Shown here in pieces: positions 1,231 to 54,359 of a DNA stretch of 64,000 nucleotides. This DNA is from Nitrospirota bacterium. Lineage in GTDB: Bacteria > Nitrospirota > UBA9217. Both the position numbers and the translations under genes were made by a program. Location of the stretch: assembly GCA_963741205.1 (NCBI GenBank), contig CAVUHW010000028.1:1-64000 (forward strand), given 5' to 3'. The notes under the pieces are model-generated. The model did no database searches, was not told the origin of the DNA, and was given only the letters and a program-made list of their open reading frames with translations. Every line of letters begins with the position of its first letter. The first letter of the stretch is position 1.

Positions 1231-2640
1231 ATGTTGCTGACAAAAGTCAAACAGACCATCAAGAAATACCGTATGCTTGCCCCCGGGGACCGGGTGCTCG
1301 TCGCCGTCTCGGGCGGCCCCGACTCGGTCTGCCTCCTCTCCGTCCTTCAGAAATTCGCGAACGGACCTCGGCCTCGAGCTTCACCTGGCGCATCTCGACC
1401 ATATGTTCCGCGGACGAGAATCGGCGGACGAGGCGCTGTTCGTCGACGCTCTCGCAAGGAAGCTCGGGATCCCCGCGATCGTCGAACGGATCGATGTTCC
1501 CGCTTACTGCCGCGAACACGGCCTGTCTTCTCAGGCGGGCGCGCGTGAGGCGCGGTATGGATTCCTCTCCCGCGTCGCGGCGGAGACCGGCGCGTCCCGC
1601 ATCGCCATCGGCCACACGGCCTCGGACCAGGCCGAAACTTTCCTCATGCGGCTCATACGCGGAGCGGGAGTCCCGGGACTTTCCGCCATTCCGCCGCACG
1701 CGAGAGCATCATCCGGCCCCTGATCGAGGTCACGAGAGAAGAGGTGATGGAGTACCTGACGTCGAACAGGATCTCTCCTATGTTACCGATTCATCGAACG
1801 CAAAACCAATCTATACAAGAAACAGGATACGGATGGAGGTGCTGCCTGTCCTTGCAAAGTTCAATCCGCGGATCGTCGAGACCCTCGCATCCGAGGCCTG
1901 CTCTGCTCCGGGATGAAGAAGAGGCCATGGAGGCTCACCTTGCCGGCGTGCTCCCCGGGATCATGACGCAGGAGCGTGAAACCGTCGTGCTGAAGAGGGC
2001 GGAATTCCTTTCCCTCCTCCCGGCCCTCCGGAAGAGGGTCCTCAAAAAAGCTGTTGACGGCCTGGGCGCGGAATCGCCGGCACTGTCATCGGTTCAGCTC
2101 GACGAAGCGGTCACTTTCCTGTCCGAAGCCCGGACCGGGAGGAACCTGCGCCTGCCCCGCGGTCTTTCGGTCGAACGGGAATACGACCGTTTCCTGATCA
2201 GCGCTGCGGAAACAGCCGGCCCCTTCTCCCGTGAGCTCCTCGTCCCCGGCGTCACCGTGGTCCCGGAACCGGGATGGAGGTGGAAACTGAAGTACGTCGA
2301 TACGTTCGCCCTCCCCTTTGAGTCGACAGGAAAAAATTATCGCTGGCAGGCCGTGTTCGATTATGATAAAATGGAGTTCCACTTGACGCTCAGAAACAGG
2401 CGCCCCGGCGACTGGTTCTGTCCTTCCGGCATGCAGGGCAGGCATAAAAAAATCCAGGATTATCTCGTGGACAAAAAAGTCCCTCGCCGGCTGCGTGACC
2501 GGGTTCCGCTGCTCTGCGCAGGCGAAAACATCCTCTGGGTAGTCGGCCACAGGACTGATGAGCGGTTTCTCCCCGGGCCGGGAACGAAGAGACTATTGAT
2601 CGTACGAATGCGGAATTCGGAAAGCGTCCTGCACTCGTGA
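1231..2640 (+). CDS. tilS: tRNA(Ile)-lysidine synthetase (several frameshifts)
   Basis: [10 protein letters not shown]-loop, [29 protein letters not shown]-terminal RRPGD..KKIQD..VPRRLR across ORF pieces. Confidence 0.92.
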
Positions 2641-2719
2641 CTGCCGCACTCGTAAGGCCGGGTGCAGGCAGGATCGCCCCTCACACCCTTACGAAAAGAA
2701 ATTCATGGAGGTTTACAAG

Positions 2720-3274
2720 ATGGTAGGTATCGATTTCGGAAAGCCGCTTTTTACCCTGAGGAGATCCAGCGGAAGATTCAGGAGCTCGGGGCCAGGATAT
2801 CCGACGGACTACGCGGACAAGGACCTGCTCGTCGTCGGCGTGCTCAAGGGCGCCATTTTTTTCATGTCCGACCTGCTCCGATCCCTCCGGATATCCGTTC
2901 AGGATGGATTTCATCCACTGCACCAGCTCATCCTCCAAAGGCAAAGGCGGGATCCCGTACGAATGATCTGCGACATCAAGGAGGACATCCGGGGCAAGCA
3001 CGTCCTTCTGGTCGAGGACATCATGGACTCGGGCGTGACCCTCGATTATCTCAAGAAGATGCTGCAGGAGCGAGGCCCGGCTTCGCTCAAGGTCTGCGTG
3101 CTCCTGGACAAGGCCGAGCGCCGGCAGGTGCAGATCGAGGCGGATTACGCCGGTTTCCGGATCCCGAACAAATATGTGGTCGGCTACGGCCTGGACTACA
3201 AGGACCGCTACCGGAACCTCCCCTACATCGCCGTGCTTCCCGTGGAGCAGAGCGGAGGGGTAAACCGCTCATAA
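2720..3274 (+). CDS. hpt: hypoxanthine phosphoribosyltransferase
   Basis: GVLKGA, VLLVEDIMDSGVTL, VVGYGLDY..YRNLPYI; GGAGG SD; between tilS and ftsH. Confidence 0.92.
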   Translation: MVGIDFGKPLFTLRRSSGRFRSSGPGYPTDYADKDLLVVGVLKGAIFFMSDLLRSLRISVQDGFHPLHQLILQRQRRDPVRMICDIKEDIRGKHVLLVEDIMDSGVTLDYLKKMLQERGPASLKVCVLLDKAERRQVQIEADYAGFRIPNKYVVGYGLDYKDRYRNLPYIAVLPVEQSGGVNRS

Positions 3275-49891: not shown

Positions 49892-51476
49892 CTATATCTT
49901 GATCTGCTTCACCGACAGCACGTTCGGCAGCTGTCTTGATCTTTGCCATGAGCTCGTCGGACACGACGCTGTCGATGCTTACCACCGACATGGCCAGGCC
50001 GCCCTGCTTCTCGCGGCCGAACTGCATGCGCGCGATGTTGATCGCCGTTCTGGCCGAGGAGCATGCCGATGCCGCCGATAACGCCCGGTTTGTCGTTGTT
50101 CATGAGCACCAGCATGTCGCCCTCGGGCACCGTCTCCATGGGGAAATTGTCCACCTGGATGATGCGCGGCTCTTTCTTGCTGTTCAGCGTGCCCGGAAGC
50201 GGACACGTCCCTGCCGCCCGCCTTGATCCGGAGCGTGACGAGGCTCGTATACTCGGTAGCCCCGGTGGACTTGGACACCTTGACCTCGATGCCCCGGTCC
50301 TTGGCGATGAGCGGCGCGTTCACGTAGTTCACGTTCTCCTGCAGGGTCGGCGTGAGCAGGCCCTTGAGCGCCGCGAGCGTGATCGGCTCCTGTTTGAGGT
50401 TCGCCACCTCCCCGCTGTACTCCACGGTCACCTGGGTGAGGCCGCCCTCGGAGAGCTGGGCGATGAACAGGCCCATGCGCTCCGCAAGGTTGATGTAGGG
50501 AGAGAGCGTCGGGAGCTGGTCCGCGGGCACCGACGGCACGTTCACGGCGTTCCGCACGGTCCCGGCGACGAGGTAATCCACGATCTGCTCGGCCACGGCA
50601 ACGGCCACGTTCTCCTGGGCCTCCCGGGTGGAAGCGCCGAGATGCGGCGTGGCGATAAAGTTGTCGAGGGTCAGGAGCGGATGGTTCTCCGGCGGCTCCT
50701 TCTCGAACACGTCGAAGGCCGCTGCCGCGACCTTGCCGCTCTTCAAGCGCCTCGTAAGAGATCCTGCTCGTTCACGATGCCGCCGCGGGCGCAGTTGATG
50801 ATGCGCACGCCGTCCTTCATCTGGGCGATCGTGTCCTTGTTGATCAGGTTCGCCGTTTCCTTGGTCTTGGGCGTATGGATCGTGATGAAGTCGGACCGCT
50901 TGTAGAGCGTCGGCAGGTCCGCGAGCTCGATGCCGAGGCGACTTCGCCTTTTCCGCGGAGATGAACGGGATCATAGGCCAGGACCTTCATGCCGAGCCCG
51001 ATGGCCCGGTTCGCGACCACGCCGCCGATCGCGCCCAGCCCGACGATCCCCAGGGTCTTGTCGTAGAGCTCGACGCCCTCGAACTTCTTCTTTTCCCACT
51101 TGCCCGCCTTGAGCGAGGCGTAGGACTGGGGGATCATCCGGGCGCAGGCGAAGATCATGCCGATGGTGTGCTCCGCCGTGGTGACCGTGTTGCCGCCGGG
51201 CGTGTTCATCACCACAACGCCCTTCTTGGTGGCCGCCGGGATGTCCACGTTGTCCAGGCCGCTGCCCGCGCGGCCCACGACCTTGAGCTTCGCCGCCTTC
51301 TCGAGCAGCCCCGCCGTGACCTTGGTGGCCGAGCGGATGATCAGCGCGTCGTAGTCGCCGATGATCTTCTCGATCTCCTCGACCGAGGTCTTGCTCCGGG
51401 CGTCCACCTCGAGCCCGGCCTTTTTCAAGATCTCCACCCCGACGGGGGAGAGGTTGTCGCTGATGAGAACCTTCAT
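49892..51476 (-). CDS. serA: D-3-phosphoglycerate dehydrogenase with ASB/ACT domains (frameshifts)
   Basis: GRAGSGLDNVD, NTPGGN, GLGAIG, DVFEKEPP, TPHLGAST.EAQ, N.DKPGVIG. Confidence 0.95.
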
Positions 51477-51498
51477 GATACCTCCTAAATGCAGATGT

Positions 51499-51578
51499 AA
51501 CCACAGATGAACACGGATGGACACAAAATTAAATCCTTAATTCAGCTTTAAATAGCTTTACCGTGTTCATCTGTGGTT
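51499..51578. repeat. 18-bp perfect inverted repeat
   Basis: AACCACAGATGAACACGG (51499-51516) / CCGTGTTCATCTGTGGTT (51561-51578). Confidence 0.8.
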
Positions 51579-51584
51579 AATAAT

Positions 51585-52724
51585 TTATTTCATCAATATT
51601 TCCTGCGCCGCGCCGACGCCCGTACCGAGCTTCACCGGATGGCCCAGGCCCTTCAGGACCATCTCGATGCCGGCAATGGCCGTGATCACGTCGAAGGTAT
51701 CGGCATAGCCCAGGTGCGCGATGCGGAAGATCTTGCCCTTGAGCTTGTCCTGGCCTCCGGCGCCGGTGATGCCGTACTTCACGCGAAGGTCCTTATAGAT
51801 CGCCTGGCCGTCAACGCCCGCGGGCGCTTCAATGGCCGTGAGCGCATTGCTCGGAGCTTTCCTTCGGGAAGAGCTTGAGGCCGAGGGCCGCGGCCCCCGC
51901 GCGGGTCGCCCGGGCGAGACGGTCGTGGCGGCGCAAACACCTTCTCGAGCCCTTCATCCTGGAGCATCTTGATGCAGGAGTTGAGCCCGATGATGAGCGT
52001 CACCGCCGAGGTGAAATTCGTCTGGTTCTTGGCCAGGTTCTCGCGCTCTTTCTTGAAATTGAAATAGAACTTCGGCGTCTTGGCCGTATCGGCCATCTTC
52101 CATGCCTTGTCGGAGACGGACACGAAGGCGAGCCCCGGGCGGAAGCATCACGCCCTTCTGCGAGCCGCCGATCATGACGTCGATGCCCCACTCGTCGGTC
52201 CTGATGTCGTGCGCCACGAGGGCCGAGATCGCATCGACGACAAAGAGCGCGTCGGTCTTCTTGACGACCGCCGCGACGGACTTGACGTCATGGTACACGC
52301 CGGTGGACGTCTCGTTCGCCTGGATGAAGACGGCCTTGATCTTCGGGTTCTTCTTGAGCGCGGCCTCGACCTGCTCGGCCTTCACCGCATGGCCCCACTC
52401 CACGATGAGCTCTTCGACCTTCATGCCGTAGGCCTGGCAGATCTTGGTCCAGCGTTCGCCGAACTTACCGCCGTTGACGACCAGCACGTCGTCGCCGGGG
52501 CTCAGGAAGTTGGTCACCGAGCCGACCATGCCGCCGGTGCCGGTGGAGCAGAGGATGAGCACGTCGTTCTTGGTCTGGTAGAGCCACTGAAGGCCCTTTT
52601 TTGCGGAATCGAGCACCGGAAGGAAATCCGGCGCCCGGTGGTGGATGATCGGCATGGCCATGGCCAGAAGCGCCTCAGGGGGCACCGGGGTCGGGCCAGG
52701 GGCCAGAAGATATTTTTTCTGCAT
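51585..52724 (-). CDS. class V PLP aminotransferase, probable phosphoserine aminotransferase (frameshifts)
   Basis: LAPGPTPVP, NETSTGV, VDAIS, GSQKG.MLPPG, FRIAHLG; upstream of serA. Confidence 0.9.
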
Positions 52725-53029
52725 GGGTATATCCTCCATTAATAAGGGTAAGCGAAAACGCCTGTCAGGTTGTTTATCTGGTACAGCGCTGATATACGTA
52801 ATCGTATTATGCTGAAGAAGATTATAGTCCCGCCGGGGCGGGACCTATGCCCGGGGTTGGCGTGTCGCTGGGATATTGTGGGTGTCTGTGCTGTTTCAAG
52901 AGGTGCTGCCTTTCTTTAGCTTATTCAGGCCAAAAACCATGTGACAGTAGCATAAGCCGATGAAAATTGTCAAGAAAATAGTTCCCCGGAACAGCAAGCT
53001 GCTCCAGGGCATCATGAAGCGAAATAATC

Positions 53030-53425
53030 CTACTTTTGCATGATGTCCATAATCAGGCTTAATGAAACCACGGGGTTCGTGCGGTCATTGGAATACACGC
53101 TGACGTGCTTTTCGAGAGGACCGTTCTTCCCGGTCGTATCAACACTCGCCTTGATCTGCCCGACGGCCCCCGGATCCAGGTGATCCGAACTGATCACCGC
53201 GGCGGTGCACCCTCAGGAGGTCTGGACCCGCTCTATGATCAGCGGTTCCGTGCCCGCATTGCGCACCTCGAAAACATGGGTGGCCTGCGTCCCCTGAACG
53301 ACTTTGCCGAAATCATACTTCCATTCCTTGATCTCGATCTTCGGTGCCTTGGCCTCCTGGGCCGCAATCAGGCCGGCGTAAAGGAAGAAGGCCATGAGAA
53401 TGCTTAACCATGCCATCCTTTTCAT
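53030..53425 (-). CDS. secreted DUF1573-like protein with in-frame UGA, candidate selenoprotein (131 aa)
   Basis: YDFGKV..F.VRNAG.EPLII..VQTS-UGA-GCTAA..L.PG..G.I..DT..K.V.VYSND..NP; frame continues 60 codons to TAG. Confidence 0.8.
53179..53198 (-). promoter_or_regulatory. SECIS-like hairpin
   Basis: GGUGAUC-AGUUCG-GAUCACC starting 14 nt after the UGA; G at loop position 2. Confidence 0.65.
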
Positions 53426-53479
53426 ACGTCAGCTTCCTCTCTGCGAAGATGTTTCACATCCTTCATTTATTCCGCATCC

Positions 53480-54187
53480 TCAAAATCCTATTTTTTTCTG
53501 ATAGATCATGCTGACGAGTTCATCGCGGGAAATAATCCCTTTTTCCACGAGCAGGCTGGTGATTGCGTCGATCCGGACCCTGCAGTCCTGCAGCGCCTGC
53601 TGTGCGGTCTCTTCCTTGGACAGGATTGGCGACTTCGCATCGTTCGTCTCCGATTTCGGCATGCTGAGGTCGCTTCCGCGGATAATTTCCATTTTCCCCT
53701 CCGAGGCATGTTCTCTCTGGTAAAAAGGGTTTAGTGTTTGTTTCCGGACGATTTTCTCGTGGTCGTAGTATGTCCTGATGGCGTCCAGGATCTCGGATTC
53801 CATGGCCAAAGTCGGTTTGATGTTCAGTCCTGTAATGAAGCGGATCTCGTCGATCGCTTTGATGTCAAGAGGATCCGACATGGCTAGCATGAGCATCCCC
53901 TTCTCCCGCCGGGCCGGAACCACGTGATATTTCCTGGCAACCTCGGCTTTGACGAGCTTAATAACGCCTTCGTGGATTTCCGGTTCGAACAGATTGATGT
54001 AGGGGGTCTTAAGTTTTTCGGCAATGACGCGGGCGATGTCCTCCTCCTGCACAAATTCCAGTTCTATCAGGATGGAGCCCAGTTTGCCTCCCCAGTTCCG
54101 CTGATGAGAAAGAGCCGCAGAGAGTTGAAATTCATCGATGAGACCAGCTTCTTTCAGCAATTCGCCGAGTTTCCTGGCCTCTGGCAT
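53480..54187 (-). CDS. stand-alone MshEN/GspE N-terminal domain protein
   Basis: RKLGELLKEAGLI...QL..AL..Q...GGKLG.IL, LAMSDPLD; no ATPase. Confidence 0.82.
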   Translation of the reverse strand: MPEARKLGELLKEAGLIDEFQLSAALSHQRNWGGKLGSILIELEFVQEEDIARVIAEKLKTPYINLFEPEIHEGVIKLVKAEVARKYHVVPARREKGMLMLAMSDPLDIKAIDEIRFITGLNIKPTLAMESEILDAIRTYYDHEKIVRKQTLNPFYQREHASEGKMEIIRGSDLSMPKSETNDAKSPILSKEETAQQALQDCRVRIDAITSLLVEKGIISRDELVSMIYQKKIGF

Positions 54188-54359
54188 GGGTCCGGACCTC
54201 CACCAAAAATCGCGTTCTCGAGCTGATTGTCGGTAATTATATGCTTCGGGAGCGCCGGATGTCAATAAGTATTGGAGGAAAAGAGTAATGGGGGGAGCGT
54301 TCCCCTGAAAAAAATCCGTTGCCGCCATCGAGCTTCGCCACGGTCAATGCCGGATTCGG

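Follow-up and report, generated by a model that had tools for sequence, protein, structure and literature searches.

The question raised by this locus is whether the TGA codon that closes a short open reading frame ends a gene or encodes selenocysteine (Sec) within a longer one. The window, i.e. the whole stretch of 64,000 nucleotides that was analysed, belongs to contig C28 of a Nitrospirota genome assembly of 4.27 Mb in 50 contigs (84.5% complete, 4.9% contamination). Its list of open reading frames (ORFs) includes a 70-aa ORF on the minus strand (53425..53213), which terminates at the TGA at 53213-53215. An earlier note on this DNA, made from the sequence alone, had proposed that the same frame goes on past this codon without an indel and so completes a DUF1573 domain, that DUF1573 proteins carry a CGC motif at this site, and that the product is an exported selenoprotein with a UxC motif. 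The continuation of the frame could be confirmed: it runs with no indel from the ATG at 53425 to the TAG at 53030-53032 and encodes 131 aa, with S-U-G-C-T at residues 70–74. The Pfam profile PF07610 (DUF1573) matches residues 30–119 with 91.9 bits (cut-off 26.1), covering profile positions 1–90 of 98; because this match spans the TGA, the domain is complete only with read-through. Orthologues in 29 related genomes have the same ends and are 126–137 aa long. The elements of the gene are as follows.

53030..53425, minus strand: coding sequence of the predicted DUF1573 selenoprotein, 131 codons plus the TAG at 53030-53032, with the ATG at 53423-53425.
53213..53215, minus strand: in-frame UGA, codon 71, the first position of the U-G-C motif, read as Sec from the comparison with homologues.
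53433..53439, minus strand: Shine-Dalgarno-like GAGGAAG, a few bases upstream of the ATG, read from the sequence.
53360..53425, minus strand: predicted Sec-type signal peptide, residues 1–22, read from the sequence (K/R-rich start, hydrophobic core, and IAA followed by QE at the junction).

A GTG-started ORF of 55 aa (53030..53197) also exists downstream of the TGA. The lesions elsewhere in this part of the assembly are indels, as the earlier note had held: the neighbouring genes are broken by frame changes and not by stops, and the class V aminotransferase gene at 51585-52739 is spread over different frames in the window but occupies a single frame in relatives.

The distribution of the TGA among homologues was analysed by searching the read-through protein against the window's own genome and 60 relatives (61 genomes) and counting the stops inside each match. 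Matches were found in 46 of the 61 genomes; among the 60 matches listed, 42 contain exactly one in-frame TGA and 18 are free of stops. All 42 TGA matches were cut out, comprising 30 orthologous loci and 12 further orthologues or paralogues, and every one of them has the TGA at the position of residue 71, i.e. the first Cys of S/T-x-G-C, at identities to the window protein that range from 73% down to about 36%. The same column holds TGC or TGT in all eight of the stop-free matches examined (8 of 18). Cys/TGA pairs, for which the earlier note had suggested a search, do exist, and the homologues do carry C-G-C at this site. Over 37 aligned sequences the positions C71, G72 and C73 are invariant, with U-G-C aligned to C-G-C. 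The nearest named record comes from a Nitrospirota metagenome-assembled genome (73% identity). Public Cys forms reading SCGCT include P0001 (64% identity) and P0002 (58%), and public protein sets also contain many fragments of 72–90 aa that end at the TGA and cover 53% of the query (P0003, for instance, ends in VQTS). A search for related loci in contigs used patterns back-translated with Cys and hence returned almost only Cys forms, which makes it unfit for counting TGA forms.

Conservation 3' of the TGA, the other comparative check that had been suggested, is strong in the 30 orthologues. Over 435 orthologue pairs (Nei-Gojobori method) the downstream residues 72–129 have a mean pN of 0.251 and a mean pS of 0.633, as expected under purifying selection, and the upstream part has 0.304 and 0.711, respectively. 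Against the nearest relative, the part downstream of the TGA gives dN 0.089 and dS 0.959. As judged from these comparisons, the region past the TGA is clearly translated.

Bacterial SECIS (bSECIS) elements are stem-loops that follow the UGA closely on its 3' side and have a G near the start of the apical loop. A perfect 7-bp stem at such a place had been claimed for this gene, and we found it exactly so, at the following position.

53179..53198, minus strand: bSECIS-like hairpin within the coding sequence, with a 7-bp stem (53198-53192 paired to 53185-53179) and the loop AGUUCG (53191-53186).

The stem-loop (GGUGAUC, loop AGUUCG, GAUCACC) starts 14 nt past the UGA and is part of the minimum-free-energy fold (-34.5 kcal/mol, z = -2.5), a stability matched by 3 of 200 shuffled sequences. 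RNAalifold, applied to the alignment of the 30 orthologues, independently gave the same 7-bp stem. In these orthologues 97.6% of the 210 cells form standard pairs, and three of the seven pairs show compensatory double changes: 5 sequences have C-G in place of G-C, 9 have G-C in place of A-U, and 9 have C-G in place of U-A. The covariation score and the paired fraction were reached by none of 500 column shuffles, which ignore the relatedness of the sequences, and sliding the 3' partner columns by 1–3 positions lowered the pairing to 21–50%. The stem also encodes the conserved residues A-V-I-S-S-D/N-H-L, and because of this overlap with conserved codons a part of its conservation is driven by the protein. 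In the paralogous TGA forms the register is unchanged but the stems differ greatly in sequence (e.g. GAUGGCU/AGCCAUC), and the loop reads AGUUCN in most sequences. All seven pairs form at the fixed positions in 36 of the 42 TGA forms, whereas all eight Cys forms have four pairs or fewer; of the six other TGA forms, L158 and L164 form a hairpin with a 5-nt loop in a register shifted by one base. A hairpin that is kept with TGA and missing with TGC or TGT is what a SECIS element should look like, and comparison of the homologous sequences thereby documents both the recoding signal and its conservation. An Rfam scan of 53000-53450 gave no match at E-values up to 10, a result that carries little weight for a lineage-specific bacterial SECIS.

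Support for the codon at the level of sequencing was sought in public runs; the two richest contained shares of 0.25 and 0.22 of the sampled words, and no run reached a half. A 151-nt DNA contig from run X1 (53103-53250) and a 269-nt contig from an RNA library, run X15 (53053-53308), both bridge 53213-53215 with no change at the codon. The latter contig derives from a relative (~93% identical), because it shows 17 differences. The earlier note had called for an inspection of the reads at 53213; as far as assembled contigs of other runs can answer, the TGA is retained, but the support is thin, since it comes from Logan assembled contigs with a depth of 2–8, none of which extends over the entire stretch and which leave parts of it uncovered; the origin of one contig from an RNA library is no proof of transcription.

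The genome contains the genes expected for Sec incorporation, all of which the earlier note had listed as something to look for. A canonical tRNA-Sec is encoded on contig C45 (99 nt, anticodon UCA, discriminator G73, 63.5 bits), and profile searches identified selA (531 bits), selB (372 bits) and selD (352 bits), the last with one in-frame TGA. In this assembly the reading frame of selA changes close to the 3' end of the gene, at about 86275-86282 of contig C26. If that break were real, Sec-tRNA could not be made; an assembly indel is the likelier explanation, because housekeeping genes near the selenoprotein gene show similar breaks that are absent in relatives. The presence of the machinery is also documented by comparison among genomes. 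Of the 23 genomes of the same family (G000–G022), 20 have the TGA form (G000 and 19 relatives), and a tRNA-Sec was found in 18 of these 20; in the other two TGA-form genomes, G004 (87% complete) and G016 (89% complete), the search for tRNA-Sec gave no match. G005, G017 and G022 have no match to the protein, yet a tRNA-Sec was found in each. Among 14 genomes from other families of the phylum (G037–G050), Cys forms occur in seven, two of which (G037 and G046) have a tRNA-Sec, and the TGA form occurs in one (G039), together with a tRNA-Sec.

The genome encodes a second tRNA with the anticodon UCA, on contig C30, which is 95 nt long, has a long variable arm and ends in U73-CCA; it scores 57.8 bits with the Rfam model RF01852, and ARAGORN draws its acceptor stem with 7 bp. 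Near-identical U73/UCA tRNAs are present in two genomes of the same genus (G003 and G008), which argues that the C30 tRNA is not a contaminant, and a long-arm tRNA with U73 and the anticodon GCA is found in G010. The neighbours of the C30 tRNA are genes for a TusA-DsrE protein and a LysR regulator. Passages of Mukai et al. 2017 (PMC5389517) define SelC* tRNA-Cys by U73 together with a GCA or UCA anticodon, report it from Thermodesulfovibrio/Nitrospirae genomes that also hold the full Sec apparatus, describe opal suppression with Cys for a deltaproteobacterial SelC*, and call the function of these tRNAs uncharted. The C30 tRNA resembles them in its U73, long variable arm, opal anticodon and occurrence in a member of Nitrospirota with the full Sec apparatus, and differs in its 7-bp acceptor stem and in having no dedicated selB* or cysS* beside it; this assignment to a class is made from the sequence of the tRNA.

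With these data at hand, the possible readings of the TGA can be compared. If it were a genuine stop, due to a nonsense mutation, the decay of a pseudogene or a sequencing error, the locus would encode a 70-residue fragment or two small genes. The other lesions in nearby genes of the assembly could be quoted in favour of this, as could the public gene calls, which mostly end at the TGA after 72–90 aa, and the GTG-started 55-aa ORF at 53030..53197. A genuine stop is nonetheless hardly credible for a codon whose aligned position is constant in all 42 TGA-bearing homologues, the most distant of them at about 36% identity, and past which both the frame and purifying selection go on; moreover, DUF1573 is complete only by read-through, the covarying hairpin is specific to TGA forms, and contigs from other runs keep the TGA. 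The comparative data thus effectively refute a pseudogene, an error or a pair of small genes, and the opinion of the earlier note that a TGA at a Cys position followed by a hairpin is unlikely to be an error was well founded. The idea that TGA is a sense codon everywhere in this genome, e.g. for Trp or Gly, in which case no special recoding would be needed, draws on the open frame itself and on nothing further, and its probability is close to nil: TGA ends 31 of the 53 open frames of at least 250 codons in the window and closes the reading frame of 5 of the 30 orthologues, homologues have Cys in the aligned position and neither Trp nor Gly, and each TGA-bearing homologue has exactly one such codon, always at the same site. 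A reassigned code is refuted by this usage of stop codons. We therefore regard it as highly probable, from sequence comparison, that the gene is genuine and intact, that its UGA is recoded and that it encodes an exported DUF1573 selenoprotein; the TGA/Cys pairs, the covarying stem, the selection past the TGA and the sel genes all support the selenoprotein with a UxC motif that the earlier note had put forward.

Another question is whether the codon could be read as Cys, either always or when selenium is scarce, by the selC*-like U73/UCA tRNA, which would yield C-G-C or a mixture of U-G-C and C-G-C. Points in favour are that the C30 tRNA combines the anticodon UCA with U73, the identity base for CysRS, while the C45 tRNA is the canonical G73 tRNA-Sec; that U73 tRNAs recur in G003, G008 and G010; that selA is frame-broken in the assembly; and that a precedent for SelC*, including opal suppression with Cys, is described in passages of PMC5389517. 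Against it, we saw no second paralogue of selB or cysS: a single selB match exceeded the cut-off in the genome, and the C30 tRNA has the TusA-DsrE and LysR genes, and neither selB nor cysS, as its neighbours. Most of the relatives that keep the TGA showed the canonical tRNA-Sec only, among the tRNAs examined, which implies that the TGA is maintained without a U73 tRNA, and for a product that normally carried Cys, TGC would be the simpler codon. On balance, decoding as Cys is unlikely, and it is compatible with, not opposed to, the reading as Sec. A rather less probable elaboration, built by analogy, is that codon 71 is dual-use, being read as Sec via SelB when selenium is available and as Cys via the U73/UCA tRNA when it is short, so that the cell would have a U-G-C or C-G-C form of a periplasmic CxC-type exchange protein working with a membrane redox partner; the analogy for such a partner is with paired genes for MauE and DUF1573 in Ignavibacteria, described below.

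Returning to the reading of codon 71 as Sec, we asked how the protein relates to known selenoproteins. The earlier note knew of no characterised selenoprotein in this family, but the novelty that this implies does not hold: DUF1573/OS_HP2 with UGC has been catalogued since 2007–2008 (Zhang and Gladyshev 2007, 2008), and an NCBIfam model exists. Table 2 of PMC1976440 presents OS_HP2 among new selenoprotein families, and the selenoproteome table of the GOS study (PMC2398784) lists it with pfam07610, UxC, 2 Sec and 354 Cys sequences. Listings in two reviews (PMC9312934 and PMC13188914) include a DUF1573 domain-containing protein (pfam07610/PF07610) with UGC. The names OS_HP2, DUF1573 and HP2 were not found in the main text of PMC13326102 (BSepDB) or in one of its supplementary files, which may use other names or be truncated, so that their absence says nothing about the coverage of that resource. 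The best NCBIfam match of the window protein is NF041425 (OS_HP2 family (seleno)protein), with 86.1 bits, below the curated cut-off of 100; all seven orthologues scored with this model reached 72.8–87.2 bits, barely more than ordinary Cys forms with 68.8–81.3, which agrees with the truncation of the public gene calls. The window protein shares with OS_HP2 the PF07610 domain, the Sec in U-x-C (U-G-C) and the many Cys homologues, a likeness that is one of description and model score. OS_HP2 was described from deltaproteobacterial symbionts of a worm and from marine metagenomes, whereas the window protein belongs to a Nitrospirota clade with conserved neighbours of its own. The gene is a well-supported member of the described DUF1573/OS_HP2 (UGC) selenoprotein family.

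The Cys forms of DUF1573 from Ignavibacteria and Bacteroidota are likewise single-domain proteins of ~130–150 aa with a signal peptide and S/T-C-G-C-T, and differ from the window gene in having TGC or TGT instead of TGA and in lacking the hairpin at that place. A solved structure of a Cys-form DUF1573 protein, 2qsv from Porphyromonas gingivalis, has the same fold (profile E-value 1.6e-4, Foldseek E-value 6.4e-7, TM-score 0.69), although its aligned part is devoid of the C-G-C motif. The AlphaFold model of the window protein, calculated with the 37-sequence alignment, is an eight-strand sandwich with a mean pLDDT of 90.8, in which residues 3–21 form an isolated helix, modelled with lower confidence, before the domain begins, and U71-G72-C73 lies between the strands 62–69 and 73–77. 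The nearest solved folds are 2qsv and the Ig-like domains of the HYDIN/ASH/PapD type, and the structure searches retrieved only this generic Ig-like ASH/PapD/HYDIN fold, with no match to a functional site. The model thus agrees with the proposal of an exported protein with an Ig-like fold, in showing such a fold preceded by a helix that resembles a signal peptide, and the N-terminus looks like a Sec-type signal peptide that lacks a lipobox.

The following features were identified around the gene.

53480..54328, minus strand: MshEN-domain protein, the upstream neighbour, in coordinates of the maximal ORF; translation probably starts further downstream.
54265..54236, minus strand: promoter-like site with a 12/12 match, inside the maximal ORF of the MshEN protein, a match to the consensus only.
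52984..53009, minus strand: terminator-like, G+C-rich hairpin with a T-rich tail just past the TAG, from a consensus scan only.

The upstream neighbour matches the Pfam MshEN profile with 75.6 bits. In 27 of the 29 relatives' loci a homologue of it occupies the upstream position on the same strand (one more locus has a weak match and one has no flank), and a class V aminotransferase gene follows in 26 of the 29. The promoter-like and terminator-like sites bracket two genes on the same strand, encoding the MshEN protein and the selenoprotein, with the reservation that the terminator scan found one site where 2.0 were expected from shuffled sequences. The selenoprotein is predicted to be exported, and its MshEN neighbour has no signal peptide. 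These own neighbours, the MshEN protein and the aminotransferase, offer no hint of redox function. In the Cys-form loci of other phyla, both neighbours were scanned in 39 of the 79 loci (L046–L124), and a gene for a MauE/DoxX membrane protein was found directly upstream, on the same strand, in 7 of these 39, all seven being Ignavibacteria-type records of one lineage. The 39 loci also include one with a DsbA-like neighbour, one with a rhodanese neighbour and several with tandem copies of DUF1573. MauE works with the thioredoxin-like MauD in the formation of disulfides for methylamine dehydrogenase.

Both export and the chemistry of the motif are inferred from these data. Replacement of Cys by Sec is typical of redox-active sites in selenoproteins, and exchange motifs of the CxC type are exemplified by C-G-C in Erv2, C-P-C in Mia40 and the CGC peptide mimics of protein disulfide isomerase. 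The window protein resembles the CxC proteins of the Erv2/Mia40 type in having two chalcogens one residue apart on an exposed turn; its fold is unrelated to theirs and there is no sequence relationship, so the likeness is one of possible working and not of membership. We give a role in thiol-disulfide exchange about an even chance, and favour it because of the MauE/DoxX context and because Sec takes the place of one of the two Cys in a CxC motif. A role in binding a soft metal is less likely, and some different role accounts for the rest. A full-text search of the literature on DUF1573 retrieved no statement of function; it did retrieve a DUF1573 gene of B. thetaiotaomicron among iron-responsive genes.

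In the mechanism that we propose, the hairpin at 53198-53179, located 14 nt past the UGA of codon 71, would act as a bacterial SECIS element and recruit SelB with Sec-tRNA(Sec), so that Sec would be inserted and translation would go on to the TAG at 53030. The resulting 131-aa precursor, with its Sec-type signal peptide, would be exported to the periplasm and probably cut after Ala22. The mature product would be a single Ig-like (ASH/PapD-like) DUF1573 domain of ~109 aa, presenting S-U-G-C-T in the turn between two β-strands. Sec71 and Cys73 would most likely form a reversible selenenylsulfide, and the protein would carry out thiol-disulfide exchange of the CxC type in the cell envelope; the main alternative is that the Se/S pair binds a soft metal.

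The understanding of how selenoproteins are made is unchanged by these results. What is new is modest: a Nitrospirota clade that falls short of the NF041425 threshold and whose public protein records mostly stop at the TGA. This clade of exported selenoproteins is probably under-annotated, and annotation of the gene ought to extend past the TGA. Two concrete leads for further study are the MauE/DoxX neighbours and the selC*-like tRNA, and if codon 71 were dual-use, SelC* tRNAs would gain a natural target and DUF1573 a first function. For the family as a whole, the conserved Sec marks the C-G-C motif as the functional site of DUF1573, a widespread secreted domain.

A second DUF1573 subfamily, found in the same bacterial family as the window's genome, likewise has TGA at the U-G-C position. 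Its members (excised loci L156, L157, L159-L163 and L165) come from the relatives G004, G011, G029, G033, G008, G016, G003 and G010, and exhibit the motif N-T-S/T-U-G-C-A/G-A together with a hairpin of their own sequence, of the GAUGGCU/AGCCAUC type, in an unchanged register. In the window's genome (G000), a single DUF1573 copy was seen.

The following genes of the selenocysteine machinery and a second tRNA gene are found on other contigs of G000:

C26, 85156-86524 (loci L009, L010): selA, in two pieces in different frames
C14, 97717-98643 (locus L013): selD, with one in-frame TGA
C30, 27060-27152, minus strand (locus L002, 1498-1592): second tRNA-Sec-like gene

The selA pieces cover profile positions 1-369 and 374-454, and the first frame runs on open into selB; either the Sec synthase gene carries a genuine frameshift, or the split is an indel of the assembly. 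The in-frame TGA in selD indicates that the selenophosphate synthetase of G000 is also a selenoprotein, which is common among Sec-using anaerobes. The tRNA gene on C30 exhibits a long variable arm, discriminator U73 and the anticodon UCA, and fits the SelC* tRNA-Cys class (PMC5389517). Its counterparts have UCA in G003 and G008 and GCA in G010, and it is adjoined by a LysR regulator and a TusA-DsrE fusion.

Around the selenoprotein gene, the window contains:

51585-52739, minus strand: class V aminotransferase gene, frame break near 52125-52135
53480-54328, minus strand: MshEN-domain protein gene (maximal ORF)
54265..54236: promoter-like site (12/12 sigma-70 consensus), inside the MshEN maximal ORF

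The MshEN-domain gene, directly upstream of the selenoprotein gene, is conserved there in 27 of 29 relatives; given the perfect promoter consensus within its maximal ORF, translation probably begins downstream of 54236. The aminotransferase occupies more than one frame in the window, but a single one in the relatives' loci (87-95% identity). Next to it, the ORF of a 2-hydroxyacid dehydrogenase (50844-51524) likewise looks truncated: of the 178 positions in the profile of the NAD-binding domain, it matches just 1-73.

In Ignavibacteria-type genomes, the gene for the Cys form of DUF1573 (TGC or TGT in place of TGA) has a same-strand neighbour directly upstream at seven loci:

L052, L055, L059, L064, L073, L074, L090, about 2400-2930, plus strand: MauE/DoxX-family membrane-protein gene

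The count comes from scanning 39 of the 79 loci L046-L124, and the seven cases represent one lineage. The MauE/DoxX-family protein is possibly a redox partner of the Cys-form DUF1573.
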